Origin: Escherichia phage vB_EcoM-pEB20
Direction: 5' to 3' (one strand)
Length of the DNA stretch: 64,000 bases
Sequence record: OP114733
A program made the translations under genes and the position numbers. Below, piece after piece: positions 3,872 through 54,155 of this stretch. The number at the start of each line of letters is the position of its first letter. Within the stretch, counting starts at the first letter, position 1. The notes beneath the pieces are model-generated. The model was not told the origin of the DNA and searched no databases. It saw only the letters and a program-made list of their open reading frames with translations.

Positions 3872-4104
3872 GTATAGCAATTTACATTAAATCAGAATCA
3901 TGTGATAGTTATCTGTACACATACGATAAAGATGTGTCAGAAGAAAAAATCAAAGACGACCTTAATATGGACCTTGATATGTTCTGTCCTATTGCAGATT
4001 ACAAACTTGCGGTCTCTAATAGTGAAAGTCCATCTAAAGAAACGCGCATTGAAGAATTTATGTCCGAATTAATGGCCAAATCATGGGACCGAGATGATGA
4101 GTAA
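3868..4104 (+). CDS. hypothetical acidic protein
   Basis: ORF 3853..4104; M6 start gives ATGA overlap with upstream stop. Confidence 0.5.
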   Translation: MSIAIYIKSESCDSYLYTYDKDVSEEKIKDDLNMDLDMFCPIADYKLAVSNSESPSKETRIEEFMSELMAKSWDRDDE

Positions 4105-4552
4105 GAAAAATAAAGTGAAAGAACTATCAGCCGGTATTATTTTCCTTACCGAAGATAAAGAATTATTCATGGGGCGTGTAACTGGTTCTCGTCCTAAAGG
4201 TTCTTTAGCTCATCGGTGGGATATTCCTAAAGGACGTGTCGAGCCCGGTGAATCTCCTATTGAAGCCGCTATTCGCGAATGCGAAGAAGAAACTGGGTTT
4301 ACACAATATGACCCTGCCTTCCTGAAAGACCTAGGTGAACATCATTACTCAGACAATAAGAATATTCATCTGTTCCTATATACCATCCCTGTAGAGCACG
4401 AGCAATTCAGAAACAGTGTTTGTAATTCCTATCATACATTCCCAGACGGACGACAGATTCCTGAATTTGATGCATTCGCTTTAATTAAACCTTCTCAATG
4501 GGAATATGTAATGGGCAAATCATTATATAGGGTGCTCACTACCCTCCTATAA
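4094..4552 (+). CDS. nudE: Nudix hydrolase (T4 e.1/NudE-like)
   Basis: Nudix box GRVEPGESPIEAAIRECEEETG; sits immediately upstream of lysozyme as in T4. Confidence 0.85.
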   Translation: MMSKKNKVKELSAGIIFLTEDKELFMGRVTGSRPKGSLAHRWDIPKGRVEPGESPIEAAIRECEEETGFTQYDPAFLKDLGEHHYSDNKNIHLFLYTIPVEHEQFRNSVCNSYHTFPDGRQIPEFDAFALIKPSQWEYVMGKSLYRVLTTLL

Positions 4553-5075: not shown

Positions 5076-5353
5076 AAACATATAGTGAATTTTTATCAGA
5101 ATCTATTCTTAACGAAGCTACTGACACATTTGCAACTAAGCTAGGTGCAGCTTTGGTTGAAGCTGAAAGTCTATTAGCACGTATTTCTGAACTTGCTAGT
5201 AAGATAGATACTCGCAAATTTGAACGTACCAGCGATATCGCTAAGCTTGAAGCCTTGTTACGTATGTGCGATAAACCGGAAGAAATCGCTAAGAACGGCT
5301 CGCTAATGAAACAACGTCTTGAAAAATATATTTCAGGCGCTTCGGAAAAATAG
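5072..5353 (+). CDS. internal-protein-like with capsid targeting sequence [10 protein letters not shown]
   Basis: N-terminal CTS-like decapeptide typical of T4 IPI/IPII/IPIII; ATGA overlap with e. Confidence 0.6.
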
Positions 5354-5411
5354 TGTTTACTTCCTCCAAGGACTTTGATACTATACATTCATCAACTACT
5401 TGGAGGAAATT

Positions 5412-5825
5412 ATGACCCGTATCAATTTAACACTTGTTTCTGAACTGTCCGACCAACATCTTATGGCTGAGTATCGTGAATTACCACGCGTATTTGGTGC
5501 AGTCCGTAAACATGTTCAAAACGGTAAACGTGTAAAGGATTTTAAAATCTCTCCAACATTTATCTTAGGCACAGGTCACGTAACATTCTTTTACGACAAA
5601 CTCGAATTTTTACGTTTACGACAAATCGAGCTAATCGCTGAATGCTTGAAACGTGGTTTCAAAATCAAGGACACGACTGTCCAGGATATTTCCGACATCC
5701 CTGCCGAATTTCGTAATAATTATGTCCCGTCCGAAGCGTCCATTGCGATAAGTCAAGCACGCTTAGATGAAAAAATTGCTCAACGTCCGACTTGGTACAA
5801 ATACTATGGTAAATCAATTTACTAA
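5412..5825 (+). CDS. denV: endonuclease V, pyrimidine-dimer DNA glycosylase
   Basis: [24 protein letters not shown].. near-identical to T4 EndoV as recalled. Confidence 0.9.
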
Positions 5826-6157: not shown

Positions 6158-6472
6158 ATGAAAACGTATAAAGAATTTATTGCAGAATCCGCCAACCAAC
6201 GCGTTGAAGGTGGTTATATTTGGATTGAACAAGTTGAGCCACCGAGCCGCACTTCTACAGGTAAATGGAAAATTACTGTTGACGGTCCTGGCGGTAAACG
6301 TAGGACTCTTAAAGAAATTAACGGGTACTATGAAGAAGCTCTTTCGGATGCAGGAACTTACATGATGCAAATCATGATTAAAAACCCTGAAAACCGTTTT
6401 GCAGCTAAAGTCTTCCGCCGTATTGGTAATAAACTTTATGATGCATACTCTAAAAACTTCCCTAAAGAATAA
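6158..6472 (+). CDS. internal-protein-like with CTS MKTYKEFIAE
   Basis: ORF track; CTS-like N-terminus. Confidence 0.65.
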   Translation: MKTYKEFIAESANQRVEGGYIWIEQVEPPSRTSTGKWKITVDGPGGKRRTLKEINGYYEEALSDAGTYMMQIMIKNPENRFAAKVFRRIGNKLYDAYSKNFPKE

Positions 6473-6497
6473 CATAAATTAAAACAATAGGAACAAA

Positions 6498-6827
6498 ATG
6501 AAAACATATCAGGAGTTTATCACTGAAGTTACATTATCTGCGGAACAGAAAGCTGCTATCGAAGAAGGTAAAAATCCCAAAGTAACATATAAAGTAAATA
6601 GTAAAGGCGTTTTTGATGGCTTGGTTCAAGACCCTGAATTGAAAAAAGCTCTTTCTAAAACTAATGCGTACTTTGCTCCTAAATTTAACACAGCCGGTGT
6701 ACTTATTGGATTGGATGTATTCAACTCTAAAGGTGTTCTATCTAATGCCTTTGGTTATGCCGCTAACAAAATTACCAAAGCCGCATGGGAATCCAATACC
6801 AAACAAGCTCAAAAGCCTAGAGTATAA
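6498..6827 (+). CDS. internal-protein-like with CTS MKTYQEFITE
   Basis: ORF track; CTS-like N-terminus. Confidence 0.65.
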   Translation: MKTYQEFITEVTLSAEQKAAIEEGKNPKVTYKVNSKGVFDGLVQDPELKKALSKTNAYFAPKFNTAGVLIGLDVFNSKGVLSNAFGYAANKITKAAWESNTKQAQKPRV

Positions 6828-39848: not shown

Positions 39849-40484
39849 ATGAAAACTACTCCTATTACTATCGCTATTGACGCAATTATAAAACAAGCTT
39901 CTTCTTTGGCCGCTATGGCCAAAGTAATTAGTCAAAACCCTGCTCGTTATAATGCTATTCTAGAAACTCTTCGACGCCCTGGACTTAGTAATTATGAAAG
40001 CCGGGTAATTATTACAGGTGTTGGTAAGAATGCTAATATCGCAACTAAAGCTTCCGAGACTTTTGCTTCACTCGGTATCCCGAGTATGTACTTGAACACT
40101 GGGCATTATTCTCACGGTGATGCAGGATTCATTGCGCCTAATGATGTGTTGATTCATATTAGTCGTTCTGGTAAAACTGAAGAAATGATAGGCGTGGCTA
40201 AGCATCTTAAAATGATTCGTCCGAATGTCAAACAGATTCTGTTGCATTGTAACCCAGACATTCCACAAGAAAATGAAGCCCTTTTTGATTACTCTTTCTG
40301 TACAGGCATCGCGGTAGAGGTTGATGAGAATTCTCTGGCTCCGACTATGTCCACTACATTGTTGTTAGCGCTTATCGATACGTTTGCTATCAACCTTTCG
40401 TCTGAGCGTGGATTTACCTCTAATGACTTCCTTAAGTTCCATCCAGGCGGTGCACTAGGTGCCATGTTACGAGGCGAACAATGA
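39849..40484 (+). CDS. SIS-domain sugar-phosphate isomerase (KdsD/GutQ-like arabinose-5-phosphate isomerase core, no CBS domains)
   Basis: VIITGVGKNANIATK, HGDAGF, LAPTMSTT, FHPGGALGAML match KdsD SIS domain pattern. Confidence 0.7.
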   Translation: MKTTPITIAIDAIIKQASSLAAMAKVISQNPARYNAILETLRRPGLSNYESRVIITGVGKNANIATKASETFASLGIPSMYLNTGHYSHGDAGFIAPNDVLIHISRSGKTEEMIGVAKHLKMIRPNVKQILLHCNPDIPQENEALFDYSFCTGIAVEVDENSLAPTMSTTLLLALIDTFAINLSSERGFTSNDFLKFHPGGALGAMLRGEQ

Positions 40485-40624
40485 AAGCAATAACAATAGG
40501 ACTTTTACTATTGATGCTTGTCATGACTATCTACTGGAGCTTAACGGCTCCAGTAATGATTCCAACACTTGTAATTGGATGGATTATGATTGGACTACAA
40601 GCAAAGTATGAATGCTTTAACTAG
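40481..40624 (+). CDS. 47-aa two-TM membrane peptide (below ORF-track cutoff)
   Basis: ATGA overlap with SIS gene stop. Confidence 0.35.
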   Translation: MKAITIGLLLLMLVMTIYWSLTAPVMIPTLVIGWIMIGLQAKYECFN

Positions 40625-40665
40625 AATAGTGTACAATACTCCTACTTACCAATGAGGACTTCAAC

Positions 40666-42351
40666 ATGAAAAAAGCTGTTATTCTTGGTGCTGGACTGGC
40701 AACTCGTTTGTATCCAATAACGCACCATATTCCTAAGGTGCTTGTTAACTATAAACAAGACACTATTCTAAGCAATTTGTATACAATTTATTCTGACCTT
40801 GGCGCAGATGAAATTATTGTAGTAGTTCATTCAAAATTTGCTGAAACTGTTCGAGCTTATTGTGAGCAAGAAGGGTTCAATGTGACTATTCGTACAGTTG
40901 ATGAAGCGTATGGTTCTGCTTATGCTCTTGCTAAATTACACAAAGATTTAGACGGCCATAATGTAATTGTTAACTGGTGTGATATTATTCCTGATTTTGG
41001 TTCATGGTCTTGGAATGTTAACGCAATCTATGTTAAGGGTGACGAATGTCGATATAATTTCGACGGTGAAAATATCACTAACGTAGGTTCAACAGGTGGT
41101 AATGTTGTAGGAATTTATCAGTTCAAAGACTGGGAATTCTATATGGGTTCTACTGATGAGGAAATTCATGAATACTGCAAAGGACGTGATTTCGTAGAAT
41201 TCCTTTACGGCAGCGCATTCAATAAATCAGAGCTTATGAATCTAATTGATTTAGGTGATATGCCTAAACTTGAAAAAGCTCATGAAGTTCGTGAACTTAA
41301 TCGTAGTTTTAATGCAGTTGAAATTGGTGAAGAAACTGTAACTAAATTCGCATTAACCGAACAGGGTCGAGCTCTTCAGAAAGATGAGATTTCATGGTAT
41401 CTTAAAGTGAAATCAGATTCAGTTCCTCAGTTAGTTTCGGTAAATGAAAATAATTTTGAAATGGAACGTATTAAAGGTAAGCCGGCATTTGAATATATTA
41501 AATCCAAATCAAGTCTTGCTCGTCCACAAATTGTTGATGCAATTTTAGATGCACTGAAATTCAGCACAGACACTTATTTTGTAAGTCCTGAAACTGTTCG
41601 TCGTGATTTCACTAAAGAGTTCTATACGAAAGTTATTGATCGTTGTGAAAGCATTCAACCATTGATTGATTCATTTGGTAAAATCACACATGTGAACTAC
41701 ACTAAGATTGGACGTCTGAAGCCAATGCTGAAACAAGCTTTAGAACACCTTATTCGTTATCATAACCGTTCTCAGGGACAGTACTCTGTTATTCATGGTG
41801 ACCCGAACTTCAGTAATACTATGATTACTGATAACGGCGAAGTCAAGTTTATAGACCCTCGTGGATATTTTGGCGAAACCAAGATTTATGGGCCAAAATT
41901 GTATGATGAAGCTAAAGTGCTTTATGCTGTTTCAGGATATGATGAATTCAATGCTAATCCGACCTGGGGACAGTTTACTATTGATGAAACAACTTGTAAT
42001 GTGACTATTAACATCAATCCATTAGTTTACAAATATGGAAAGATGAGTTCGTTTAACGAGTATCATCATTTGGCTGTAGCAATTATCTGGATTGCATTAG
42101 GTGGTTATTTCAAGAATAATCCACTTAAAGCGGTAGCCGCATATTATAAAGGTATGGAACTTCTGACTAAGCAATTACGTAACATGGGCCGTGTACTTCA
42201 GGACGGCTCTATTAGTTATGACGTAGCAGAACCTGTAACGGCTACTCTGATTACAAAAAATCCTGGTAAATGGGTACTAACTGATAAAGAAACCGGTGTT
42301 TCCTATCGTCCAATCGGTGGCGATATCACTCATCAATGGGAACGAATTTAA
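40666..42351 (+). CDS. bifunctional sugar-1-phosphate nucleotidyltransferase (N) / sugar kinase of APH-ChoK fold (C)
   Basis: N-terminal GAGLATRLYPIT (RmlA-like); C-terminal HGDPNFSN...IDPRG (Brenner motif plus metal-binding Asp). Confidence 0.7.
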   Translation: MKKAVILGAGLATRLYPITHHIPKVLVNYKQDTILSNLYTIYSDLGADEIIVVVHSKFAETVRAYCEQEGFNVTIRTVDEAYGSAYALAKLHKDLDGHNVIVNWCDIIPDFGSWSWNVNAIYVKGDECRYNFDGENITNVGSTGGNVVGIYQFKDWEFYMGSTDEEIHEYCKGRDFVEFLYGSAFNKSELMNLIDLGDMPKLEKAHEVRELNRSFNAVEIGEETVTKFALTEQGRALQKDEISWYLKVKSDSVPQLVSVNENNFEMERIKGKPAFEYIKSKSSLARPQIVDAILDALKFSTDTYFVSPETVRRDFTKEFYTKVIDRCESIQPLIDSFGKITHVNYTKIGRLKPMLKQALEHLIRYHNRSQGQYSVIHGDPNFSNTMITDNGEVKFIDPRGYFGETKIYGPKLYDEAKVLYAVSGYDEFNANPTWGQFTIDETTCNVTININPLVYKYGKMSSFNEYHHLAVAIIWIALGGYFKNNPLKAVAAYYKGMELLTKQLRNMGRVLQDGSISYDVAEPVTATLITKNPGKWVLTDKETGVSYRPIGGDITHQWERI

Positions 42352-42716
42352 TGCAACTATGCTTCGATGTCGATGATTGTATAACCGAATGGAATAACAA
42401 TCGTGATTACGCTAATTTTAAACCGGACCTAGAAATGGTGGCAGCCATTAATGCCTTGTATGACGCAGGGCATACCATCACGCTTTACACTGCTCGTGGT
42501 ATGAAGTCTGTAGGTCCTGGACGTATTGCTGTAGATATCCTACCAGGTCTGTTACAGAACTTAGCTAACATTGGTTTGAAGTATCATAATTTGCTAACAC
42601 ATAAACCAGTATATGATTGGATTATCGACGACAAAGCTATGCGTCCTGACGAATTCAAAGCTCTTATGAATAAAGGCGAATTCGAAACATTTAAATCATA
42701 TAAACCAAATCTATAA
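42351..42716 (+). CDS. small HAD-superfamily phosphatase
   Basis: N-terminal FDVDDCIT (DxD motif I), ITLYTARG, WIIDDKAM; TAATG coupling to upstream gene. Confidence 0.6.
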   Translation: MQLCFDVDDCITEWNNNRDYANFKPDLEMVAAINALYDAGHTITLYTARGMKSVGPGRIAVDILPGLLQNLANIGLKYHNLLTHKPVYDWIIDDKAMRPDEFKALMNKGEFETFKSYKPNL

Positions 42717-42762
42717 TAATTTAAGTAAGACCTGCAAAAACCGTCGCATCAATTAACGCGAG

Positions 42763-43932
42763 ATGCAAAAAATGAATACTTTTAAAATTGGAACGAATTT
42801 CGATTTAGCTCTTCTTGATAAAATCGTAGAGCTCAATAAAACTTATCCTAATAGCTTGATAAATGAAGTATACGGCTCTACAAGAGAAATGGCTTTTGTA
42901 GCAGCCAGACCTGATTTTAGGCTTCCTGACGTTGACAAAAAGATGTTAGAAGACTACGTTAAACGTTGTAACGAATTAGGTATTTGCTTTAACTATACAC
43001 TCAACACGATAAATCCTGGTTCAAAAAGAGAACTAGTTGAGTGGAAGAAGAAAGCTATTCAGGATTATGTTCAGTATCTTTGGTCAATAGGCGTATGGCG
43101 TATTACTATCGCTAACCCTGTTGTTATGGAAATTGTTCGTGAAGTCAATAAAGACATTGAGATTGAAGTTTCAACAATTCTACATGTCGATGCTGTAACT
43201 CAAATCAAATACTTGCATGACCAGTATAATATCAAAAAGGTCTGCTGTGGAATTCATAAGAACCGTTCAGTTTCTTTCCTGAAGCGTGCAGCAGAGTTTT
43301 GCAATAAGAACAATATAATATTTGAAGTTCTTGTAAATGAGTTCTGTTCTAATGCTGGTAAAGGGTATACAACACATTGTAGCTATCGTGACTCTTGCTA
43401 TATTTTCCATAGTACTGATGTTACAGCTGATGATGCTAAATCCTTAAACGGATATCCTATGCAGCACTGTATTAAAGCTCGTGATACAGACCCATTTAAC
43501 TGGTTGAGAACTCGTTTTGTTCGTCCTCAAGATTTGAAACTTTATAATGATATTGGTATCACTCAATTTAAAGTTTCAGGACGTACAGGTAGCACAGACT
43601 ACATTTTGAAAGTTCTTGAAGCATACGCTTCTGAAAAGTTTGAAGGTAATTTGTTAGAACTGTGGAAGCCTTTAGAGACTATTTTCACTCTTGAAAACGA
43701 AACTGAGTTTTCACATACGGTAAATATTGAAACCTCTTTGTTAGACGGCTTTTTAGAAAAAAGGTGGTTCAGACATCCAGATTTCGATTGTGCTAATGAA
43801 ATCTGCGGGACGACGTGTACATATTGTGAAAGATATTATAAACGTCAGTTATCTAAAAATGGGTTATCAGAAAACTCTATATCTATTATTGATATAACTA
43901 ACTCTGATGACGCTTTGAGGTACCCGGAATGA
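42763..43932 (+). CDS. Cys-rich enzyme of unknown function (C-terminal CX4CX3CX2C); candidate Fe-S protein or transferase
   Basis: ORF track; CANEICGTTCTYC near C-terminus. Confidence 0.55.
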   Translation: MQKMNTFKIGTNFDLALLDKIVELNKTYPNSLINEVYGSTREMAFVAARPDFRLPDVDKKMLEDYVKRCNELGICFNYTLNTINPGSKRELVEWKKKAIQDYVQYLWSIGVWRITIANPVVMEIVREVNKDIEIEVSTILHVDAVTQIKYLHDQYNIKKVCCGIHKNRSVSFLKRAAEFCNKNNIIFEVLVNEFCSNAGKGYTTHCSYRDSCYIFHSTDVTADDAKSLNGYPMQHCIKARDTDPFNWLRTRFVRPQDLKLYNDIGITQFKVSGRTGSTDYILKVLEAYASEKFEGNLLELWKPLETIFTLENETEFSHTVNIETSLLDGFLEKRWFRHPDFDCANEICGTTCTYCERYYKRQLSKNGLSENSISIIDITNSDDALRYPE

Positions 43933-44168
43933 TTTCTAGAAAAACTTTTAACCACCAACTTAATGAAGAGATTTTGACTATAAAACTGAACACTAACGAA
44001 CAAATTCTTAAAAAGGCCCTGATGGGCCTGTTTGAAACTAAAGCGGCTAAAGTGATTAAAGAACCTGTTCAATTGGAATACTACGCTGATGCATTTCTTC
44101 ATAGTGTTCTTGGAAGTATCGATGCTGAAGCTTTACGTTATATCAACATTGTCAAGAAATTCAAATAA
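43929..44168 (+). CDS. hypothetical protein
   Basis: ORF track. Confidence 0.5.
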   Translation: MISRKTFNHQLNEEILTIKLNTNEQILKKALMGLFETKAAKVIKEPVQLEYYADAFLHSVLGSIDAEALRYINIVKKFK

Positions 44169-44210
44169 GCTTTACGAATTGAGTATATAATAAATTGTAT
44201 TGAGGTAAAC

Positions 44211-44927
44211 ATGGGAAAACATAACACAATGAAATATATCAAAGCCGCAGATTTTCAAACCGCATTTAAAGCAGTCAATCGTGAAATTTTAGAAAACCCG
44301 GAATTCGTAACTGATTCTCGTATTGGACGTTGTAATGAAATTGGGTCTATGACAGTAGTTGTTGACACTCCATCATCATTCAAAATGACCGACCCACGTA
44401 TTAACCGCATCTCTTATGAATATGCCGAAGACTTCTGGAAGTTTATGATTTCTGGTGGTACCAACGCAGAAGAAGCGTTTAAGGCATATCCTAATGTCGC
44501 TAAATTTATTTCTAAACCAAAATCAGATGTTTTGCCGGCGAACTTCAACACTTTCTATGGTCCTCGCATTGCGGCCCAATTACCAGCTCTTCTAAAAGAA
44601 CTTAAAGAGAAGCCTAACTCTCGAAGAGTTGTGTTCCAAATTCTAGAAAGTTCTGATCAGGCTTTGCTTGATTCAGACGAAACGCTTGAATATCCATGTA
44701 CTGACTCAGTGACTTATTATATTCGTGATGGTAAGCTTTATACCCACTGTCATATGCGTTCTCAGAACTGTGCTGTTGTTATGCAGTTGGATTTTTATCT
44801 CCAAGGAAAATTACTTCATTATATCGCTAACGAATGCGGTGTAGAAGTTGGTGATTATACTCATACCATGGTAAGTGCCCATGTGTTTGAACGTGATTTT
44901 GATTATGTTAAAGGATTCCTTGACTAA
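44211..44927 (+). CDS. 42: thymidylate-synthase-fold pyrimidine hydroxymethylase (gp42-like dCMP hydroxymethylase)
   Basis: NSRR..PCTDSVTYYIRDGKL..HMRSQN pattern parallels T4 gp42 active-site region as recalled; position between 43 and uvsX. Confidence 0.6.
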   Translation: MGKHNTMKYIKAADFQTAFKAVNREILENPEFVTDSRIGRCNEIGSMTVVVDTPSSFKMTDPRINRISYEYAEDFWKFMISGGTNAEEAFKAYPNVAKFISKPKSDVLPANFNTFYGPRIAAQLPALLKELKEKPNSRRVVFQILESSDQALLDSDETLEYPCTDSVTYYIRDGKLYTHCHMRSQNCAVVMQLDFYLQGKLLHYIANECGVEVGDYTHTMVSAHVFERDFDYVKGFLD

Positions 44928-45826
44928 TGGCTATTTTCCGCGTACCTATCTTGAGTATGCGGTCTTATGAAACTGGACAGTATGCTATCCTTAAGGATGG
45001 CAACTTCCAACTTCATTTGCACCGTGCTAATCCGGGTGATGTGATTACATATCCACGTAATGCATCTGATATTAAAGAATGCGAACGTCTTTTCCCAGAA
45101 TTTAAGTTTGTTCCGTTATGGTATAAAGATAACGCATATAATACTCGTAAATATTTCTGGTCTGAAAATGAATTTGTAGTTGATTCGTTGATTGCTTATT
45201 ATGATTGTGATTTTCTCATCACGGATATCACTGGATATGATGGTGCTTTTGACGTAGAATTCAATTTCAATATCACTGCAGACCCTAATAAACCACGTTT
45301 TTATATTGACGAATTCTTAAAAACTGATATGTTGTCGGTTAATCGTTCACTTCAAACTACTGTGTTGAATGAACGTCAAAAAGAAGTGCTGGTTAACGCA
45401 GGTGCAGATGGTAATAAGATTATCGTAACGCAGAAAGTTATACGTCCTTCCATCATGCAGCGTCTTGTAGGTGATTTGGCTCCTATTCATCTAGATGGTA
45501 TTTTTCATCCATTTCGAATTAGTGACCCGTGCTATCGTTTTGAACAAGTGGTTGAATGTGCAATTCAATTAGGCCAACCGCTTTATATAACCGATCCAAA
45601 TAATAGCTTCGACAGAAATAAGTATCCTGAAGAAGCACTGATTCGAATTTTTAAACCAACTAAAACTGAGTACTATCAAATTCTTAAAGGACGTCCGAAG
45701 ATTCAATATTTCGAAAATCCTGAAGAAGTATTCCATCCAGGTCTTGGTGAGTTCATCTACTTTAACGCTTTAATTTCTTCGCCGTATAATATACCTAAAT
45801 ATGAAGATGTCGTAATCGAGGAATAA
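44927..45826 (+). CDS. hypothetical 299-aa protein at beta-gt position; candidate DNA glycosyltransferase
   Basis: ORF track; no motif recognised; synteny only. Confidence 0.5.
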   Translation: MAIFRVPILSMRSYETGQYAILKDGNFQLHLHRANPGDVITYPRNASDIKECERLFPEFKFVPLWYKDNAYNTRKYFWSENEFVVDSLIAYYDCDFLITDITGYDGAFDVEFNFNITADPNKPRFYIDEFLKTDMLSVNRSLQTTVLNERQKEVLVNAGADGNKIIVTQKVIRPSIMQRLVGDLAPIHLDGIFHPFRISDPCYRFEQVVECAIQLGQPLYITDPNNSFDRNKYPEEALIRIFKPTKTEYYQILKGRPKIQYFENPEEVFHPGLGEFIYFNALISSPYNIPKYEDVVIEE

Positions 45827-45827
45827 A

Positions 45828-46376
45828 ATGGCTAAAATTATTTTAGTAGATGGCCCGGATAATGCTGGTAAAACAACTTTCATTAATGACATAATGGAAA
45901 TTAGTGAAAGATATGTAAAGATTGATTTCCCTAAACGAACAGTTGATGGGCGTTTCGATGTTAAGTCTCGAAATGAAGTTGGCTGTTTCGAAACGATGTT
46001 GAATTATTTAGACCCTACTAAGATTTATCTGTTAGACCGTGGATATATTAGTAACTGGGTTTATGGACGTATTCGACAAGATGCGGACTCGATTCTTGAC
46101 GTTTATGAACAGGACTATGTTCGTCTTTGCCAAAACCATGATGTGTTCACAATTATTTTAACACGTAACGAAATGACTGAAAGTTTTGAAGACGACCTTA
46201 TTACTTTGTCTTCACTCAGTTTCAATACAGTCATTTCACATTTTGAAGAGTTTGCAATTCATAACAAAATCCAAACGTATCAATTACTTAATCATGATGG
46301 TGCTAACAAAGTTATAGGATTTAATGCAAGCGAACGTAATTATTTGATTACAGAAATTATCAAATGGGCTCGTTAA
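45828..46376 (+). CDS. P-loop (deoxy)nucleotide/nucleoside kinase-like
   Basis: Walker A GPDNAGKTT; LLDRGYISNWVYG resembles dNK/TMPK DR motif. Confidence 0.6.
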   Translation: MAKIILVDGPDNAGKTTFINDIMEISERYVKIDFPKRTVDGRFDVKSRNEVGCFETMLNYLDPTKIYLLDRGYISNWVYGRIRQDADSILDVYEQDYVRLCQNHDVFTIILTRNEMTESFEDDLITLSSLSFNTVISHFEEFAIHNKIQTYQLLNHDGANKVIGFNASERNYLITEIIKWAR

Positions 46377-47990: not shown

Positions 47991-49433
47991 GTGGTAGAAA
48001 TTATTTTGTCTCATCTAGTATATGACCAGGCTTATTTTTCTAAGGTCTGGCCTTATATGGATTCTGAGTATTTTGAGCGTGGACCGGCAAAAAATGTCTT
48101 TAAAATTATAAAGAGCCACGTTAACGAATATAATGCAATGCCATCTATCAATGCGTTAAAGGTGGCTTTAGATAACAGTTCTTTAACTGAAGCCGAATAT
48201 AAAGGAACTTCAGACCTAATTGAAAAATTGGCTGATACTCCTGAAGACCACGAATGGTTGGTTAAAGAAACCGAGAAATATGTCCAGCAAAAAGCGATGT
48301 ATAATGCTACGTCCAAAATCATTGAGATTCAGTCTAATGCTGAACTACCTCCAGAACAACGTAACAAGAAAATGCCTGACGTAGGAGCTATTCCTGATAT
48401 TATGCGTCAAGCACTTTCAATTTCGTTCGATAGTTATGTTGGACATGACTGGATGGAAGACTACGAAGCACGCTGGCTTTCTTATCTAAATAAAGCACGT
48501 AAGGTCCCGTTCAAATTAAACATTTTGAATAAAATCACTAAAGGTGGTGCTGAAACCGGTACACTGAATGTTTTAATGGCCGGTGTTAACGTTGGTAAAT
48601 CTTTAGGCCTTTGTTCACTTGCTGCAGATTATCTTCAAACAGGTCATAACGTTCTTTATATTTCTATGGAAATGGCTGAAGAAGTTTGTGCTAAGCGTAT
48701 CGATGCAAACATGCTTGACGTATCACTTGATGATATTGATGATGGTAACGTATCTTATGCTGAATATAAAGCCAAGATGGAAAAATGGCGTTCAAAATCC
48801 ACATTAGGACGTTTAGTAGTTAAACAGTATCCTACTGGTGGAGCTAATGCTAATACATTTCGTGCATTGCTTAATGAGTTAAAACTTAAGAAGAACTTTG
48901 TACCATCTGTAATCATGGTTGATTACTTAGGTATTTGTGGGTCTTGTCGTATCAGAGTTTACACTGAAAATAGCTACACATTAGTTAAAGCTATCGCAGA
49001 AGAACTTCGTGCATTAGCAGTAGAATCTGAAACAGTTCTATGGACTGCAGCTCAAGTAGGACGTGCAGCATGGGATGCTTCAGACATGAACATGAGTGAT
49101 ATCGCAGAATCAGCAGGTTTACCAGCAACGGCAGATTTCATGTTGGCCGTAATTGAAACCGAAGAACTTGCACAAGCTGAACAACAACTTATCAAACAAA
49201 TCAAATCACGATATGGCGATAAGAATAAGTGGAATAAATTCCTGATGGGTGTACGTAAAGGCAACCAGAAATGGGTTGAGATTGAGCAAGAAGGCATGAA
49301 CACACCTAACACAGTAAATGAAAACGCAGGTGCTCAGATGCGTCAGGCAGAGGTGAATCGTACGGAACGCGTAGGTAAAGCCAAAGCAACACGTGCTGAC
49401 CTAGATAGCTTAGCCAATGAGTTAAAATTTTAA
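47991..49433 (+). CDS. 41: replicative DNA helicase gp41 (DnaB-like)
   Basis: Walker A GVNVGKS; 480 aa; start in ORF track is GTG after AAGGAG. Confidence 0.9.
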   Translation: MVEIILSHLVYDQAYFSKVWPYMDSEYFERGPAKNVFKIIKSHVNEYNAMPSINALKVALDNSSLTEAEYKGTSDLIEKLADTPEDHEWLVKETEKYVQQKAMYNATSKIIEIQSNAELPPEQRNKKMPDVGAIPDIMRQALSISFDSYVGHDWMEDYEARWLSYLNKARKVPFKLNILNKITKGGAETGTLNVLMAGVNVGKSLGLCSLAADYLQTGHNVLYISMEMAEEVCAKRIDANMLDVSLDDIDDGNVSYAEYKAKMEKWRSKSTLGRLVVKQYPTGGANANTFRALLNELKLKKNFVPSVIMVDYLGICGSCRIRVYTENSYTLVKAIAEELRALAVESETVLWTAAQVGRAAWDASDMNMSDIAESAGLPATADFMLAVIETEELAQAEQQLIKQIKSRYGDKNKWNKFLMGVRKGNQKWVEIEQEGMNTPNTVNENAGAQMRQAEVNRTERVGKAKATRADLDSLANELKF

Positions 49434-49436
49434 TAA

Positions 49437-49458
49437 AAAGGAGACTTCGGTCTCCTTT
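49437..49458 (+). terminator. rho-independent terminator (UUCG tetraloop)
   Basis: AAAGGAGAC-TTCG-GTCTCCTTT. Confidence 0.6.
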
Positions 49459-49521
49459 CGGGGTTTACATCTTCCTCTAGGCATGATATGATGAACTTAC
49501 ACCAACCAAGAGGAAAACATT

Positions 49522-49896
49522 ATGAATATGTCTCAAGCAATTTTTACTGCAATCACCGAAAACACAACTGTTGAAGTAGTTTCTCCGCTGGCAACCTACG
49601 TTATTCTTGCTCCTAAAACTATTGTATCTCGTATGGAAAACATGGGCAAACGTATCGTACAAATTGTTGGAGCCGGAAATCAAAAACTTGATTATCTGCG
49701 AACCATCAAAGCTTATGAACATTTCCAACTCGAAAAAGGTTCTCCTATCCAGGTAGAACTCGTAAATGGTGATATCGTTCGAGCAATGTTCCATCATTTC
49801 TATGCATTGAATGACCCATCTAAAGCAGTTCGTTTAATTGCATACGACGCAAACCAAAACGAAATCAACGCGGATATATCTAAATTACGTTTTTAA
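49522..49896 (+). CDS. hypothetical protein
   Basis: ORF track. Confidence 0.55.
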   Translation: MNMSQAIFTAITENTTVEVVSPLATYVILAPKTIVSRMENMGKRIVQIVGAGNQKLDYLRTIKAYEHFQLEKGSPIQVELVNGDIVRAMFHHFYALNDPSKAVRLIAYDANQNEINADISKLRF

Positions 49897-49945
49897 GTTT
49901 ACTTCTCCAGTAGTTGTGTTATTATAGACCTATCAACTACTGGAG
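49897..49945 (+). promoter_or_regulatory. early promoter in 12-bp perfect inverted repeat (PeSL-like)
   Basis: GTTTAC 49897-49902; arms CTCCAGTAGTTG 49905-49916 and CAACTACTGGAG 49934-49945. Confidence 0.6.
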
Positions 49946-49951
49946 AACAAA

Positions 49952-50269
49952 ATGAAAACCATCGATTGTAAAGCAGAATTTAAGATTTTTTATCACGGTT
50001 CAAGTAGTTCAGCTAACATCGAAAACATGCTTTGTCCTCCTGAAGAAACAGGAGTTCTGTCTGAAACTGGACGTAAGAAAAACTTGGATCGTGTATTCTT
50101 TACTGAAGATATCGGTTTAGCAAAGATTTATGCAGGACGAGCAGCCCGCTCTTATGGAGGTGAACCACGTCTCTATCGAGTAATTTCTCCGGTAGATGTA
50201 GTTCAAATGAATGATACTAAAGGCGCTACAGTTTATCACGCTGAATGGGCCTTCTGTGAGGAAATATGA
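49952..50269 (+). CDS. hypothetical protein
   Basis: ORF track. Confidence 0.55.
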   Translation: MKTIDCKAEFKIFYHGSSSSANIENMLCPPEETGVLSETGRKKNLDRVFFTEDIGLAKIYAGRAARSYGGEPRLYRVISPVDVVQMNDTKGATVYHAEWAFCEEI

Positions 50270-50454
50270 GCAAATTAACTAAAGTTACTTTTATCGGTTG
50301 GTTTAAAAGCGGTGAGATGTTCACTAAAGATATCATGTTATCAGGTGATCGCGAAGAAATCGAGTGGGTTGCGGTACAACTTGCTGAAGTGAACAAAGCA
50401 TTAGTTAAAGCATTTGTTAATGACGAGAAAGTTTTCGAAGCAGATTTTCGATAA
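50266..50454 (+). CDS. dmd: Dmd antitoxin (inhibitor of RnlA/LsoA toxins)
   Basis: VTFIGWFKSGEMFTKDI..AEVNKALVKAF resembles T4 Dmd as recalled; about 60 aa. Confidence 0.8.
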   Translation: MSKLTKVTFIGWFKSGEMFTKDIMLSGDREEIEWVAVQLAEVNKALVKAFVNDEKVFEADFR

Positions 50455-50525
50455 TTTTAAAATAACTGTTTACAAGCCCCACATACTGTGTTACTATCTT
50501 TCTATCAACTACAGAGGAAATTGAA

Positions 50526-50894
50526 ATGAAAAAATTAATCGCTTTAGCAATGGTATTTGGATTAACCGGATGTGGTGCCCATGGCTTTATCCCTAATAAC
50601 GTTGGCCAACTGATTTACAATCCGAATGTTAAACAGTACGACCACCCTAAAGTTGAAGTGGAAGACCCGGTTACTGTAGGTAATCGAATGATTCAAGCTG
50701 ATGCCCATGCTCAACGTTATCGTGACTCTGATACTGTAGCATTGTCAAAAGAACAACGCGTTAAAGAACATTGCTTACAGGCTACTGAAATCGCATTCAT
50801 TCGCTATGTTGAAACAACTGGTAAAGAGCCTACCCAGAAACAAATCGCGAATAACTACGTACAGTGTATTGAACGTTTAAACAAATTTAATTAA
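50526..50894 (+). CDS. predicted lipoprotein
   Basis: Signal peptide with lipobox LTGC. Confidence 0.55.
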   Translation: MKKLIALAMVFGLTGCGAHGFIPNNVGQLIYNPNVKQYDHPKVEVEDPVTVGNRMIQADAHAQRYRDSDTVALSKEQRVKEHCLQATEIAFIRYVETTGKEPTQKQIANNYVQCIERLNKFN

Positions 50895-50955
50895 TTGGTT
50901 TACACCAAAGTTAAAATAAGATACTATAAACATAACAAATCAAGAGGAAATTAAC

Positions 50956-51204
50956 ATGGAATTATTCGTAGCTAGTTCAGTAGCAGTTTTAATCGCAGGT
51001 ATTGGTTCAATCATCATTTACATGTTGCCTTGGGTAATCGCACTTATTCGTGGTACAAAAAGCACAACAGCAATCTTCTTTGTATCTTTACTCTTTAACT
51101 GGACGATGATTGGTTGGATTGGAACTTTAATTTGGTCTATCGTTGCCGAAAAGAAATCTGCTCAGCAGCCTCAACAAGTAATTATTATTCGCGAAAAAGA
51201 ATAA
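50956..51204 (+). CDS. superinfection-immunity-family small membrane protein
   Basis: MLPWVIALIRGTKSTTAIFFVSLLFNWTMIGWIGTLIWSIV resembles Imm_superinfect family pattern. Confidence 0.55.
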   Translation: MELFVASSVAVLIAGIGSIIIYMLPWVIALIRGTKSTTAIFFVSLLFNWTMIGWIGTLIWSIVAEKKSAQQPQQVIIIREKE

Positions 51205-51208
51205 ACTT

Positions 51209-51243
51209 GTTTACATTATAGATGGACTATAGTATAGTAGTCC
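51209..51243 (+). promoter_or_regulatory. early promoter in inverted repeat (PeSL-like)
   Basis: GTTTAC 51209-51214; GGACTA/TAGTCC arms. Confidence 0.5.
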
Positions 51244-51267
51244 TATCAAATCAACTAAGGAGTTAAA

Positions 51268-51561
51268 ATGAAAAAGTTATCATTGGCAGCAATCTTACTT
51301 GCAGTATCATGTGCACCAGCTCCAGTTACGGCAGGTTATGATAAAGACCTCTGTGAGTGGTCAATGACTGCAAATCAAGAAGATGTTGAACAACAAATCT
51401 TCTCTGATATCATGAACATCACTAAAAGAGACCGTCCTAATATGGTTAATAAAGTTGTTGAACAACTTAAGTCTGGCGGTATCATGCAGTACAACTATGT
51501 TTTGTATTGTGACCCTAATTTCGATAACAAAGATATCGTAACCGAAATCACAGGTGAATAA
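51268..51561 (+). CDS. sp: spackle periplasmic protein (inhibitor of gp5 lysozyme)
   Basis: Signal peptide; GYDKDLCEWSMTA and MQYNYVLYCD resemble T4 Sp as recalled; 97 aa. Confidence 0.8.
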   Translation: MKKLSLAAILLAVSCAPAPVTAGYDKDLCEWSMTANQEDVEQQIFSDIMNITKRDRPNMVNKVVEQLKSGGIMQYNYVLYCDPNFDNKDIVTEITGE

Positions 51562-51562
51562 T

Positions 51563-52213
51563 ATGATTTATTATATGCACAAAAACGCGCCATTTAAATA
51601 TGGTAAATTTCCTAATGCACAATGTTATAATATAACGCCGAATGAAAATAATAATGGATACCATATTGGTGTAATTTTTGTAATTGTTAAAGATAATGAA
51701 ATCGTTGCCTGGGCAGATTTTAAAGGTACAACATATGATGTTAATCCGGTGCCTTTCACATATTACAATATAATGGATTTGGCATATGATTATAATTGGT
51801 TTAATCATGACACGTTGGCTCATATTGAAGGTGTAGGATTTGACATCTCTTATTCTAGCTATTCATTATGTCCTATGAGCCGAGCTCACGGTAAAGATGC
51901 ATCATATCTTTCAATTCGGAAACGTGTAAACTTCAAACGTAGTACAGAGTATGTTGGTGGACTCTTTGTTAAAGATAATAAAATAACCCGTATTAGTTAT
52001 CCTTTAAGTGTAGGTCAAAAAGATGTTGATGTTGATTTGGACTTAACTGAAAATAACATTAATCGCATTGCTTCTGTATATTTTGATATCGATGAAAAAA
52101 TTGTAGTGTGTGGATACGAATTACCACCTGAAGAAAAGGCTGAAGCAATTGAAGTCGAATTAGAAATTTCTGTTGATGACCAAATATTTAATGCATTTAT
52201 GAATCGAGGTTAA
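51563..52213 (+). CDS. hypothetical protein
   Basis: M4 of ORF 51554. Confidence 0.5.
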   Translation: MIYYMHKNAPFKYGKFPNAQCYNITPNENNNGYHIGVIFVIVKDNEIVAWADFKGTTYDVNPVPFTYYNIMDLAYDYNWFNHDTLAHIEGVGFDISYSSYSLCPMSRAHGKDASYLSIRKRVNFKRSTEYVGGLFVKDNKITRISYPLSVGQKDVDVDLDLTENNINRIASVYFDIDEKIVVCGYELPPEEKAEAIEVELEISVDDQIFNAFMNRG

Positions 52214-52214
52214 A

Positions 52215-52412
52215 ATGACTACTGCAATTTGCACTGGTTCTAAAATTAGTGTTTTTACAAGTTTTGAAGATTATGAAGTTGTTTCAAAACACCAATGCCA
52301 TATTAGCGTAAAAGCTAATGATGGTGTAATTTGGAATATTCCACAGTATGAAGGCACTACATATGAAGTCACAGATATAAATGGTGATAAAGCGATCTTT
52401 GTGATTGATTAA
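52215..52412 (+). CDS. hypothetical protein
   Basis: ORF track. Confidence 0.5.
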   Translation: MTTAICTGSKISVFTSFEDYEVVSKHQCHISVKANDGVIWNIPQYEGTTYEVTDINGDKAIFVID

Positions 52413-52431
52413 ATATACTCAGGAGGTACCT

Positions 52432-52899
52432 ATGGGTATTATTAACACTGCAATAGATTCTGTTTATGCATATAAGTTTATTCGACTAATGCAAAAACCT
52501 TTTACTGAATGGAAAGCATACGAAGCCAAAATCATCGATGAACGTGGAAGTGTTCTTAAACGTCCTTCCACTCCTGAAGAGAAAGCGGCTTATACACCTT
52601 TTCATGCTTCAGTTCGTTCAATGAAGCGAATGATGAGCACTGTTCCAGGTCTTAATGGAATGGCCTCAATGATGTCTGCTTGGAGTGCTGTAGCTTCACG
52701 CTATAACATTACGGAAGAACAACAGAAAGAAATATTTAAAGAACTCCCTTTATTTGAGGATATGGTTGCTGGCGATTCAGGTGGCAGCCCTCAAGCTATT
52801 GCATCAGGAACAACTACAGGTGCAGTCGTAAATAAAGGTCCAGAACAAATTCCTTCCAAGAAAAGAAAGCGAATTAAAGTAAATATTAACAAGTTGTGA
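52432..52899 (+). CDS. hypothetical protein
   Basis: M10 of ORF 52405 after CAGGAGG RBS. Confidence 0.5.
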   Translation: MGIINTAIDSVYAYKFIRLMQKPFTEWKAYEAKIIDERGSVLKRPSTPEEKAAYTPFHASVRSMKRMMSTVPGLNGMASMMSAWSAVASRYNITEEQQKEIFKELPLFEDMVAGDSGGSPQAIASGTTTGAVVNKGPEQIPSKKRKRIKVNINKL

Positions 52900-52938
52900 T
52901 ATGATGGCCTTATTAATTTAAGGCCTCTGGAGAATACT

Positions 52939-53961
52939 ATGGCTGAATGGATAGATAATGAATTTGCTTATCGTGCGTTTTCTCACCTACCTCGTTTTAG
53001 ACAAATCAATAATTCAAGCACATTTAAATTAACGTTTCGTTGTCCAGTTTGTGGCGACTCTCAGACAGATGCAATGAAAGCCCGCGGATGGTATTATGGC
53101 GGTACTCCTGGTAATGTACATTGCTATAACTGCCAATACCACAATACAATTTCCGGATACTTAAAAGAGTATGATGAAGAGCTTTATCGCGAATATCTAA
53201 TGGAAGTTCGTAAAGAAAAGGCTAGAATGGAACCAAAGATTGAAAAGGTTCCTGAACATAAACCAGAACCGGAGAAAAAGACTATAAATTCTTTGCCGTC
53301 TTGTTCTCGTCTAGACAAGTTGCCTGAAGAGCATCCTATTGTGAAATATGTTAAGTCTCGGTGTATTCCTAAAGAATCGTGGAACAGATTATGGTTCACA
53401 TTGGAATGGCCTAAATTGGTCAACAAGATTCAACCTGGCACATATAAGAAAGAGATTCCCGAACCACGTTTAGTTATTCCTATTTTTAATAAAGATGGGA
53501 AGGCCGAGTCATTCCAAGGACGTGCACTTCGTAAAGATGCTCCTCAGAAATATATCACTATTAAAGCGTTTGAGTCTGCAACAAAAATTTATGGTGTTGA
53601 ACGTGTTAAGGAAGGAGACGTCTGGGTAATGGAAGGCCCTATTGATAGTTTATTCATACCAAACGCAATCGCTATTACAGGCGGCTCAATAGATTTAGAT
53701 GTGGTACCATTTAAAGAACGTCGGGTATGGGTAATGGATAATGAACCTAGGCATCCAGATACTATAGCTCGCATGAAGCGATTAGTTGATGCAGGCGAAC
53801 GTGTCATGTTCTGGGACCGAGCTCCGTGGAGTTCAAAGGATGTGAATGATATGGTAATGAAAGAAAATGCAACACCACAAGAAATTTTAGAATATATGAA
53901 ACAGAATATTTCAAGTGGGTTGCATGCTAAAATGAGATTATCTCGTTATTCGAAGATTTAA
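52939..53961 (+). CDS. 61: DNA primase gp61
   Basis: Zinc ribbon CPVCGDS...CYNC, Toprim-like core; 340 aa; synteny. Confidence 0.9.
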   Translation: MAEWIDNEFAYRAFSHLPRFRQINNSSTFKLTFRCPVCGDSQTDAMKARGWYYGGTPGNVHCYNCQYHNTISGYLKEYDEELYREYLMEVRKEKARMEPKIEKVPEHKPEPEKKTINSLPSCSRLDKLPEEHPIVKYVKSRCIPKESWNRLWFTLEWPKLVNKIQPGTYKKEIPEPRLVIPIFNKDGKAESFQGRALRKDAPQKYITIKAFESATKIYGVERVKEGDVWVMEGPIDSLFIPNAIAITGGSIDLDVVPFKERRVWVMDNEPRHPDTIARMKRLVDAGERVMFWDRAPWSSKDVNDMVMKENATPQEILEYMKQNISSGLHAKMRLSRYSKI

Positions 53962-54155
53962 ACCAGTCCTACAATAGCAAAGGCCAAATCAACTACAGTA
54001 TCCAATGGAACAGAAGGAACTATAATACCATGGGCAACTAACAATGGTGCAATCCCGAAGTTCCATGAAATAATGCCACCTACAACTATTGCAGCGATAG
54101 CAGTTTTCTTTTTATTGCCTTTAATAGCGTTGATTAACGATGGAAGTTTAAACAT
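53958..54155 (-). CDS. small membrane protein on minus strand (convergent with primase); probable late gene
   Basis: Only minus-strand ORF lying in a + strand gap; AAGGAG RBS 7 nt upstream on minus strand; TAATAAATA-like motif upstream. Confidence 0.6.
   Translation of the reverse strand: MFKLPSLINAIKGNKKKTAIAAIVVGGIISWNFGIAPLLVAHGIIVPSVPLDTVVDLAFAIVGLV

Follow-up and report, generated by a model that had tools for sequence, protein, structure and literature searches.

The gene 41-61 interval of Escherichia phage vB_EcoM-pEB20, an RB69-type cluster of anti-toxin and exclusion genes with a predicted minimal ADP-ribosyltransferase

The interval between helicase and primase

We analysed a 64,000-nucleotide stretch of Escherichia phage vB_EcoM-pEB20 (sequence record OP114733; this whole stretch is called the window below) and describe here the interval that separates the genes of the gp41 replicative helicase and the gp61 primase. 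The interval (49434-52938) holds nine open reading frames (ORFs), all on the + strand, as are both flanking genes and the other features of the interval; in order, these are ORF041c, ORF040c, dmd, imm.1, imm, sp, adfA (gene 61.2), ORF033c and gene 61.1. Both flanks are core genes: gp41 on the left (47991-49433) has 86% identity to T4 gp41 over 480 residues and corresponds to RB69 gene 41, and gp61 on the right (52939-53961) has 74% identity to T4 gp61 and is matched by 2386 phage records. The interval measures 3.5 kb here versus about 1.65 kb in T4, and its second half (sp-adfA-ORF033c-61.1-61) is closely packed, without intergenic promoter cassettes. For two of the ORFs we prefer the ATG starts at 51563 and 52432 over the mechanically chosen GTG at 51554 and TTG at 52405, because phage AV109 (98.8% identical) is annotated in this way and because of the points at which the profile matches begin. 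Searched against NCBIfam, none of the nine proteins gave a meaningful match.

A 3.6-kb stretch here aligns over its full length, at 98-99% DNA identity, to RB69, AV109 and 150 further records (152 in total), almost all of which are RB69-group (genus Mosigvirus) phages from Escherichia or Shigella; about 155 records match the island at 95-99% identity. A region shared on this scale is no product of chance. Because of the full-length identity to RB69-group records, the stretch is, by sequence, part of an RB69-type T4-like phage, and the RB69 annotation can be transferred to it. We consider it very likely that the island corresponds to the hyperplastic 41-61 interval of T4-like phages in its RB69-type (Mosigvirus) form, a set of small early genes that protect the infection. 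A cluster of anti-DarT, anti-toxin and exclusion genes is a known kind of region in a known phage group and has already been published; what the present analysis adds to that picture are genotype calls (no tifA, AdfA with R164, imm.1-imm beside sp) and two leads, ORF040c and gp61.1.

Anti-toxin and exclusion genes

The dmd gene (50266-50454) encodes a 62-residue antitoxin-like protein that is recognised by Pfam PF17587 (72.8 bits, cutoff 27), has 56% identity to T4 Dmd, and matches solved chains in the PDB (5i8j, E=1e-35; also T4 Dmd 5hy3_B). Dmd is an inhibitor of the RnlA and LsoA toxins (PMC9391042), and the protein encoded here would act in the same way, so that an intact dmd predicts resistance to RnlAB and LsoAB.

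In RB69, tifA (gene 61.4) lies between dmd and imm.1; Srikant et al. (2022) gave this name to T4 gene 61.4, which encodes a ToxN inhibitor (PMC9391042). At the corresponding site in the window (50455-50468), alignment with RB69 reveals a gap of roughly 206 bp that takes out the tifA ORF alone and leaves its last ~10 nt (TTTAAAATA), and tblastn with TifA of T4 or RB69 gives no match anywhere in the 64 kb. The RB69-type tifA is found in 69 records, versus the roughly 155 that match the island, which makes it a presence/absence polymorphism within Mosigvirus. It appears that tifA was lost by deletion in the lineage of vB_EcoM-pEB20, and this phage should therefore be more sensitive to toxIN than RB69. 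As a separate observation, Escherichia phage UP19 (Dhakavirus) carries two TifA-like ORFs in a single 41-61 interval (5316-5606 and 6413-6616 of its locus, L007), each with 37% identity to T4 TifA, one after dmd and the other before the ORF033c homologue; the pair looks like a duplicated ToxN-inhibitor family.

The 216-residue product of adfA (51563-52213) is an anti-DarT factor (Pfam PF23813, AdfA, 399 bits with a cutoff of 27, E=4.6e-120) for which the PDB holds no solved relative. It differs from RB69 AdfA by a single substitution, S147G, and has Arg at position 164 (RB69 numbering), where the aligned residue of T4 is His. The His164 needed by the DarT1-neutralising allele is not present. 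Johannesman et al. found that RB69 AdfA with Arg164 fails to associate with DarT1 and that R164H does associate, and that Arg164 is the residue in RB69 as well as in Bas46 and Bas47, which are closely related to it (PMC11257639). AdfA would act by binding DarT, with the Arg164 form reported not to bind the DarT1 tested; by its sequence, the allele in the window should give the phage no protection against the tested DarTG1. The grouping of dmd (anti-RnlA), tifA and the nearby adfA has been noted before, with the proposal that the region 'may be an anti-TA island' (TA, toxin-antitoxin) whose other genes are 'attractive anti-toxin candidates' (PMC9391042). Held against that description, the window has the cluster between genes 41 and 61, dmd and adfA, and has no tifA beside dmd.

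The remaining known members act at the envelope. The imm.1 homologue (50526-50894, 122 residues; Pfam DUF5481, 37 bits; annotated imm.1 in RB69) is a predicted lipoprotein whose N-terminus, MKKLIALAMVFGLTGC, contains the lipobox L13-T14-G15-C16, read directly in the sequence; it has 32% identity to T4 Imm.1, in which the lipobox is LAGC. The imm gene (50956-51204, 82 residues; annotated imm in RB69) encodes the inner-membrane superinfection immunity protein, with 57.2 bits on Pfam Imm_superinfect (cutoff 27.9), 65% identity to T4 Imm from end to end (residues 1-82) and two hydrophobic stretches visible by eye in the translation. Spackle, encoded by sp (51268-51561, 97 residues), is annotated as periplasmic and belongs to the superinfection-exclusion set; it scores 145 bits on Pfam T4_Spackle over its full length, has 66% identity to T4 Sp and matches 6x6o and 7cn6 in the PDB. 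The mature chain 7cn6 aligns from residue 23 onward, in keeping with a signal peptide of 22 residues. Spackle is reported to inhibit the gp5 tail lysozyme of incoming phage. Imm at the inner membrane and Spackle in the periplasm would exclude superinfecting T-even phages, and intact imm and sp predict such exclusion of rivals; Imm.1 is presumably a lipoprotein whose gene moves together with imm as a pair.

These assignments bear out the members that an earlier note on this DNA had named from the letters alone: a Dmd antitoxin, a lipoprotein with lipobox LTGC, a superinfection-immunity-family membrane protein and spackle. Its count of four further unknowns needs correcting, since there are five other ORFs (49522-49896, 49952-50269, 51563-52213, 52215-52412 and 52432-52899), and that at 51563-52213 is the known AdfA. 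The note also passed over the loss of TifA, the known ToxN inhibitor.

In T4, the imm.1-imm pair is located between genes 43 and 42, whereas here it stands beside sp; the imm in the interval is the only one in the 64-kb window, which has no second copy at the T4 location. We observe that, where T4 has imm.1-imm-42-beta-gt, the window has a different cluster between the DNA polymerase gene (gp43) and uvsX (39849-46376). It encodes a SIS-domain protein, a 561-residue nucleotidyltransferase, a Peptidase-U32-family protein, four ORFs without domains, and a divergent thymidylate-synthase-family protein with 25% identity to T4 gp42. The cluster is probably the one for DNA hypermodification in RB69 (PMC6024577; PMC13326640), and its presence may explain the different seat of imm.1 and imm.

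Variation across T4-like genomes

To place the island among its relatives we tabulated its members by tblastn in 12 genomes from 11 genera, with loci taken from annotated phage records, since a search for related loci with gp61 as the sole query gave just two near-identical contigs. The conserved tail motif of gp61.1 is present in the interval of all 12, always adjoining gene 61. The other members are distributed more narrowly: dmd occurs in Mosig-, Tequatro-, Dhaka- and Gaprivervirus; sp in these four and in Jiaodavirus; adfA in Mosigvirus and T4, T2 having only a divergent 118-residue ORF with 29% identity to AdfA residues 73-216; ORF033c in Mosig-, Dhaka- and Gaprivervirus; ORF040c in the same three and in an Acinetobacter Lazarusvirus, not in T4 or T2; and imm.1, imm and ORF041c in Mosigvirus only. 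In Krisch-, Slopek-, Karam- and Pseudotevenvirus the interval is occupied by unrelated small ORFs, and T4 has the order 41-dmd-61.4-sp-61.2-61.1-61.

The content of the interval differs by genus. The earlier note had called it an accessory island rich in envelope and anti-defence functions and had suggested looking for variable members across T4-like phages. The comparison to T4 and the 12 genomes agree with this description: the cluster is accessory and variable, and proteins of the envelope and of superinfection exclusion (Imm.1, Imm, Sp) stand in it beside the anti-defence protein Dmd. The outcome that would have spoken against it, full conservation of all members with T4, was not obtained: the window adds ORF041c, ORF040c, ORF033c, a long 61.1 and the relocated imm.1-imm pair, and is without 61.4/tifA.

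Two observations concern the surroundings of gene 61. A hydrophobic ORF of 65 residues on the - strand (53958-54155), without a Pfam match, overlaps the end of gene 61 at the position of RB69ORF029w; the records of T2, UP19 and AV109 annotate it too. In Escherichia phage vB_Eco_F27 (Mosigvirus; 4046-4349 of its locus, L017), an extra ~340 bp before gene 61 holds a 180-bp ORF labelled 'DNA primase' and a 147-bp ORF; this segment looks like a partial duplication of the 5' end of the primase gene or an assembly artefact.

Putative promoter cassettes and proposed module exchange

A promoter scan found that each of the first five intergenic gaps bears an early-promoter-like cassette of the pattern TTTAC(A/T)-N16/17-TAnnAT (at 49464, 49898, 50469, 50899 and 51210), and aligning the five cassettes shows a similar leader after each of them, of the form CTATCAAC...GAGGAAATT...ATG. 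Cassette 1 (49464-49492), upstream of ORF041c, is TTTACA-N17-TATGAT, with 10 of 12 consensus matches and a TG extension. Cassette 2 (49898-49947), upstream of ORF040c, is TTTACT-N16-TATTAT. Cassettes 3 (50469-50497) and 4 (50899-50927), upstream of imm.1 and imm, are both TTTACA-N17-TACTAT, and cassette 5 (51210-51238), upstream of sp, is TTTACA-N17-TATAGT. With a looser form of the pattern, the 64 kb contain 23 sites on the + strand (five in the 1.75 kb of the island and 18 in the other 62 kb) and two on the - strand; the background rate predicts about 0.5 cassettes per 1.75 kb where five are seen, for which a Poisson estimate gives p ~2e-4. The PeSL promoters of T4-type phages have the consensus TTTACW-N17-TAYWAT (PMC4122927; also Arbiol et al. 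2010, PMC2839356). Three of our five cassettes fit it exactly and the other two with one mismatch in the -10 hexamer.

Folding adds stem-loops at two of these sites. Directly after the gene 41 stop, at 49437-49458, lies a terminator-like stem-loop, GGAGAC-UUCG-GUCUCC with a U-rich tail (-12.8 kcal/mol, z-score -3.1, none of 200 shuffles folding as well), which also precedes the promoter in phage LF82-16. This hairpin came from folding; the terminator scan returned a single, unrelated site inside ORF040c. The second stem-loop is a 14-bp hairpin in which cassette 2 is nested (-21.5 kcal/mol, z=-4.8); it encloses the -10 hexamer, and its 3' arm holds the ORF040c Shine-Dalgarno sequence, GGAG. A hairpin that sequesters the Shine-Dalgarno sequence is found only where ORF041c is upstream, namely in the window and, with differing arm sequences, in the metagenomic contig L015; there is none where ORF041c is missing. 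We infer that it shields ORF040c from read-through transcripts and that ORF040c is translated from transcripts initiated at cassette 2.

The spacer between gene 41 and ORF040c in LF82-16, which lacks ORF041c, is a chimera: its left part (stem-loop and -35) is that of cassette 1 and its right part (-10 and leader) that of cassette 2. Because of this chimeric structure, the ORF041c module is, as far as the sequences tell, one that has been gained or lost by exchange inside a promoter cassette. The junction of the ORF041c indel thus falls inside a cassette; that of the tifA indel does not clearly do so.

Taken together, the first half of the island would consist of units of one or two genes, every one of which begins with an early promoter cassette of the sigma-70 type and some of which have a stem-loop as well, with genes gained and lost at the cassettes through PeSL-type recombination, as in the ORF041c polymorphism. 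The relocation of imm.1-imm to the 41-61 interval could have come about by recombination of the same type. Read in this way, the island is a clear case from nature in which promoter modules serve as the points where gene cassettes are swapped.

A predicted ADP-ribosyltransferase upstream of dmd

AlphaFold2, Foldseek and profile searches predict that ORF040c (49952-50269, 105 residues) has a minimal ADP-ribosyltransferase (ART) fold of the Arr/KptA-like kind. The end of ORF040c and the start of dmd share the four bases ATGA, an arrangement in keeping with coupled translation of the two genes. ORF040c is present in 609 T4-like phage records, most of them at 64-100% identity (Escherichia, Klebsiella, Aeromonas and Acinetobacter phages), and its unusually conserved homologues, at 60-90% identity, extend across phages of Enterobacter, Pantoea, Serratia, Proteus, Acinetobacter and Vibrio; a few records already label them 'putative ADP-ribosyl transferase'. 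The AlphaFold2 model is confident (predicted local distance difference test, pLDDT, 83.6; predicted TM-score, pTM, 0.76) and has the ART core fold, and the top ranks of the Foldseek search are occupied by KptA/Tpt1, Arr (TM 0.62, probability 1.0), pertussis-like toxins, ParT and PARPs. Among 25 homologues the invariant residues are H15, G16, Y60, E103 and a basic loop (E38, G40, R41, K43, N44); the NAD-pocket residues H15, G16 and Y60 and E38, R41, K43 and N44 of the loop remain invariant from T4-like phages to distant polyvalent proteins.

Several results tell against this prediction. The Foldseek E-values are weak (0.02-0.04), ORF040c has no sequence match in the PDB by single-sequence or profile search and none to Pfam Arr-ms (PF12120, gathering threshold 25 bits) at E<=10, and the third catalytic residue is uncertain, E103 being invariant in the T4-like subfamily only. 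Of the 25 close homologues, three match Arr-ms, all below threshold (E>=0.026). The profile of the family, searched against 1.84 billion representative proteins, recovers 222 relatives. In many of these it is a ~95-residue domain within a very large protein, with ART-PolyVal, NUDIX, GNAT and Toprim as neighbouring domains, and there the same stretch reaches 27-29 bits on Arr-ms, above the cutoff. Because ORF040c falls below the Arr-ms threshold while its remote profile relatives reach it, we place ORF040c, on these profile scores, as a sister group of Arr-ms and not as a member. The multidomain architecture of the very large relatives is that of the 'polyvalent proteins', which have been tied to phage-host conflict (PMC9503650). 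From sequence and model together, ORF040c is probably an active minimal ART-fold protein of this Arr-like sister group, and its most likely action would be an NAD+-dependent modification of a host target involved in defence or takeover.

Searching the literature gave no paper on either ORF040c or gp61.1, and both the ART prediction and the gp61.1 capsid-motif homology set out below are absent from the papers searched. The absence of ORF040c from the T4 and T2 regions compared may explain why it is unstudied.

One of the proteins with an ORF040c-like domain deserves separate mention. P0279, a metagenomic protein of 954 residues, combines a lambda-type portal domain (94-410), the ORF040c-like ART (692-784) and a 2'-5' RNA ligase/Acb1-like (2H) domain (833-930), an arrangement that suggests a head-packaged, injected multi-enzyme counter-defence protein.

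gp61.1 and the two small ORFs without domains

Gene 61.1 (52432-52899) encodes the long, 155-residue form of gp61.1, for which we find 112 homologue clusters in T4-like phage records and metagenomic contigs. Five of the 12 genomes compared have the long form. The 54-residue gp61.1 of T4 matches only its tail, and RB69 annotates the long form as two ORFs (032c and 61.1) owing to a frameshift. The conserved tail, LFE-D-MVAGDSGG...IASGTTTGAVVNKGP, is homologous to residues 54-102 of T4 gp23 (LTEAEIGGDHGYNATNIAAGQTSGAVTQIGP; gene 23, L016:5946-7508), with E=1e-4 in BLASTP and a probability of 95.4% (E=1.6e-8) in hhalign, and this homology accounts for the stray 'major capsid protein' labels on some gp61.1 records. 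Residues 54-102 of gp23 include Glu65, where the prohead protease cleaves, and the N-arm of the mature protein, and the N-terminus of the short T4 gp61.1 (MKTFKEFIKE) resembles the capsid-targeting sequence of T4 internal proteins. The AlphaFold2 model of gp61.1 is only moderate (pLDDT 67.8); its N-terminal domain is helical and its tail disordered (below 50), and Foldseek finds no fold match for it (best E=3.5).

Because its motif is present in every genome compared, gp61.1 is, by sequence conservation, probably not part of the accessory set but a constant companion of the primase gene. More weakly, it may be an early-expressed mimic of the protease-site and N-arm region of gp23, either cleaved by the prohead protease or engaging a host factor that recognises gp23. 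Separately, gp61.1 may be a head-associated or protease-processed peptide. A role as a decoy against capsid-sensing systems such as CmdTAC was reduced to a weak possibility, because binding the CmdC chaperone would trigger CmdTAC and not block it; gp61.1 has no mention in the CmdTAC paper or the TAC-mechanism preprint.

The last two members have no domain in Pfam or NCBIfam and fall into PHROG families annotated with unknown function. ORF041c (49522-49896, 124 residues; 100% identity to RB69ORF041c; PHROG 10668) is a near-orphan, with two protein clusters among 5.8 billion proteins. The divergent cluster (52% identity) comes from contig L015 and has the same neighbours as in the island: an ORF041c-like gene, a 105-residue ORF, Dmd and Spackle, then a 155-residue ORF and, at the expected place of the primase, an ORF of 313 residues. 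The absence of ORF041c from LF82-16 makes it a presence/absence polymorphism within Mosigvirus. ORF033c (52215-52412, 65 residues; 100% identity to RB69ORF033c; PHROG 3249, an unnamed family) is matched at the same place in Dhakavirus and Gaprivervirus by homologues with 68-69% identity. By position, both are candidate counter-defence genes.

Discussion

Against our overall interpretation of the island it has to be said that the activities ascribed to its members are all carried over from papers on T4 and RB69. The promoters are consensus matches alone. A convincing stem-loop is seen at just two of the five cassettes, folding having given nothing significant at cassettes 3 and 4 and a weak hairpin (z=-1.9) at cassette 5, so that the PeSL label applies only in part; and in the alignment with RB69 the tifA indel is not flanked by two promoter cassettes.

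What ORF040c does within such an island can be read in several ways. We tentatively put forward, as a possibility, that it is an active minimal ART that covalently modifies, and so neutralises, a host defence or toxin, and would thus be an enzymatic member of the anti-TA island. Phages offer precedents for this use of the fold, such as T4 Alt, which modifies the MazF toxin. Another is AcrIF11, a phage ART that disables a defence (PMC11383003). If ORF040c is active, it would be an enzymatic inhibitor in an island so far known for stoichiometric binders. A different substrate would be expected if ORF040c were a KptA/Tpt1-type enzyme that works on nucleic-acid phosphates (RNA repair or 5'-phospho-ADP-ribosyl capping) and takes no part in protein-modifying counter-defence. 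The conserved basic loop and surface (R41, K43, R63, R66, R76) would suit the binding of phosphate or nucleic acid, but the 105 residues cover only the NAD+-binding lobe of Tpt1 (solved chains of 177-187 residues), the missing part being the RNA-binding lobe. Phage KptA homologues that act in tRNA repair have been described (PMC9503650), but the relatives of ORF040c group by sequence profile with Arr-ms and not with KptA, and we regard a KptA/Tpt1-type activity as unlikely. The protein could also lack catalytic activity and serve as a decoy or sponge that binds NAD+/ADP-ribose, or as a structural mimic by which a host ART (DarT or CmdT, for example) is blocked. This would be in keeping with the canonical third catalytic acid, which is not conserved across the wider family, and with the presence in the same island of AdfA, itself a non-enzymatic DarT binder; the invariant NAD-pocket residues and loop nevertheless fit retained catalysis better, and we think an inert protein improbable.

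For the uncharacterised members as a group, and especially ORF041c and ORF033c, one alternative is that they are neutral hitch-hikers without a defence or exclusion role. ORF041c is almost without relatives and is dispensable in LF82-16, and neither ORF has a recognisable domain. But ORF041c is held at 98-100% identity in about 150 genomes, and it persists in a second lineage, where it has 52% identity, the same neighbours and a downstream hairpin that covaries. This argues for selection, and we regard neutrality as quite unlikely. The earlier note had seen in the island a mixture of conserved T4 functions with candidates for superinfection exclusion. The mixture is there, with imm.1, imm and sp beside dmd, but the remaining ORFs are poor candidates for exclusion, because none has a signal peptide or membrane span by eye, one is AdfA and one has a predicted ART fold. 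That ORF041c, ORF040c, ORF033c and gp61.1 are further envelope or superinfection-exclusion factors would be suggested by their place next to imm.1, imm and sp in one early cluster; however, their translations have, by eye, no signal peptide, lipobox or obvious hydrophobic span, the ART fold modelled for ORF040c is soluble and its gene overlaps that of the cytoplasmic antitoxin mimic Dmd, and gp61.1 is modelled as helical and disordered, so we hold an envelope role for these four to be very improbable.

For phage therapy and host-range prediction, the RB69-type interval described here yields a small set of testable genotype-to-phenotype calls.

Comparison with known systems

AcrIF11, the anti-CRISPR ART (PDB 6kyf; PMC11383003), has no sequence similarity to ORF040c in our PDB searches, and we found no CRISPR link. 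Arr (PF12120; PDB 9iaf, a solved chain of 140 residues) is closer in kind, being a small single-domain ART, as is predicted for the 105-residue ORF040c. Arr has a Y-H-G-[ST] start that would resemble that of ORF040c. The two differ in setting, ORF040c being found in lytic phages and overlapping dmd, with no evidence for a rifamycin substrate.

The cassettes resemble the PeSL cassettes (PMC2839356; PMC4122927) in that a promoter motif heads single-gene modules in a hyperplastic region, stem-loops adjoin cassettes 1 and 2, and an indel junction, that of ORF041c, lies inside a cassette; they differ in that the promoter of cassette 2 sits inside its stem-loop and not after it.

The anti-TA island of T4, dmd-tifA-sp-adfA-61.1 (PMC9391042), occupies the same place between genes 41 and 61 with the same direction of transcription, and shares with the window dmd, sp, adfA and the C-terminal motif of 61.1 at 56-75% identity. 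T4 has tifA, which the window does not, and is without ORF041c, ORF040c and ORF033c in the 18-kb region compared; at the position of RB69 R164 its AdfA has His where that of the window has Arg. The 41-61 interval of RB69 (RB69p031-p041; NC_004928) has the same gene order, with 95-100% protein identity for ORF041c, ORF040c, dmd, imm.1, imm, sp, 61.2/adfA and ORF033c, and it differs from the window in having 61.4/tifA, a split gp61.1 and an AdfA without S147G.

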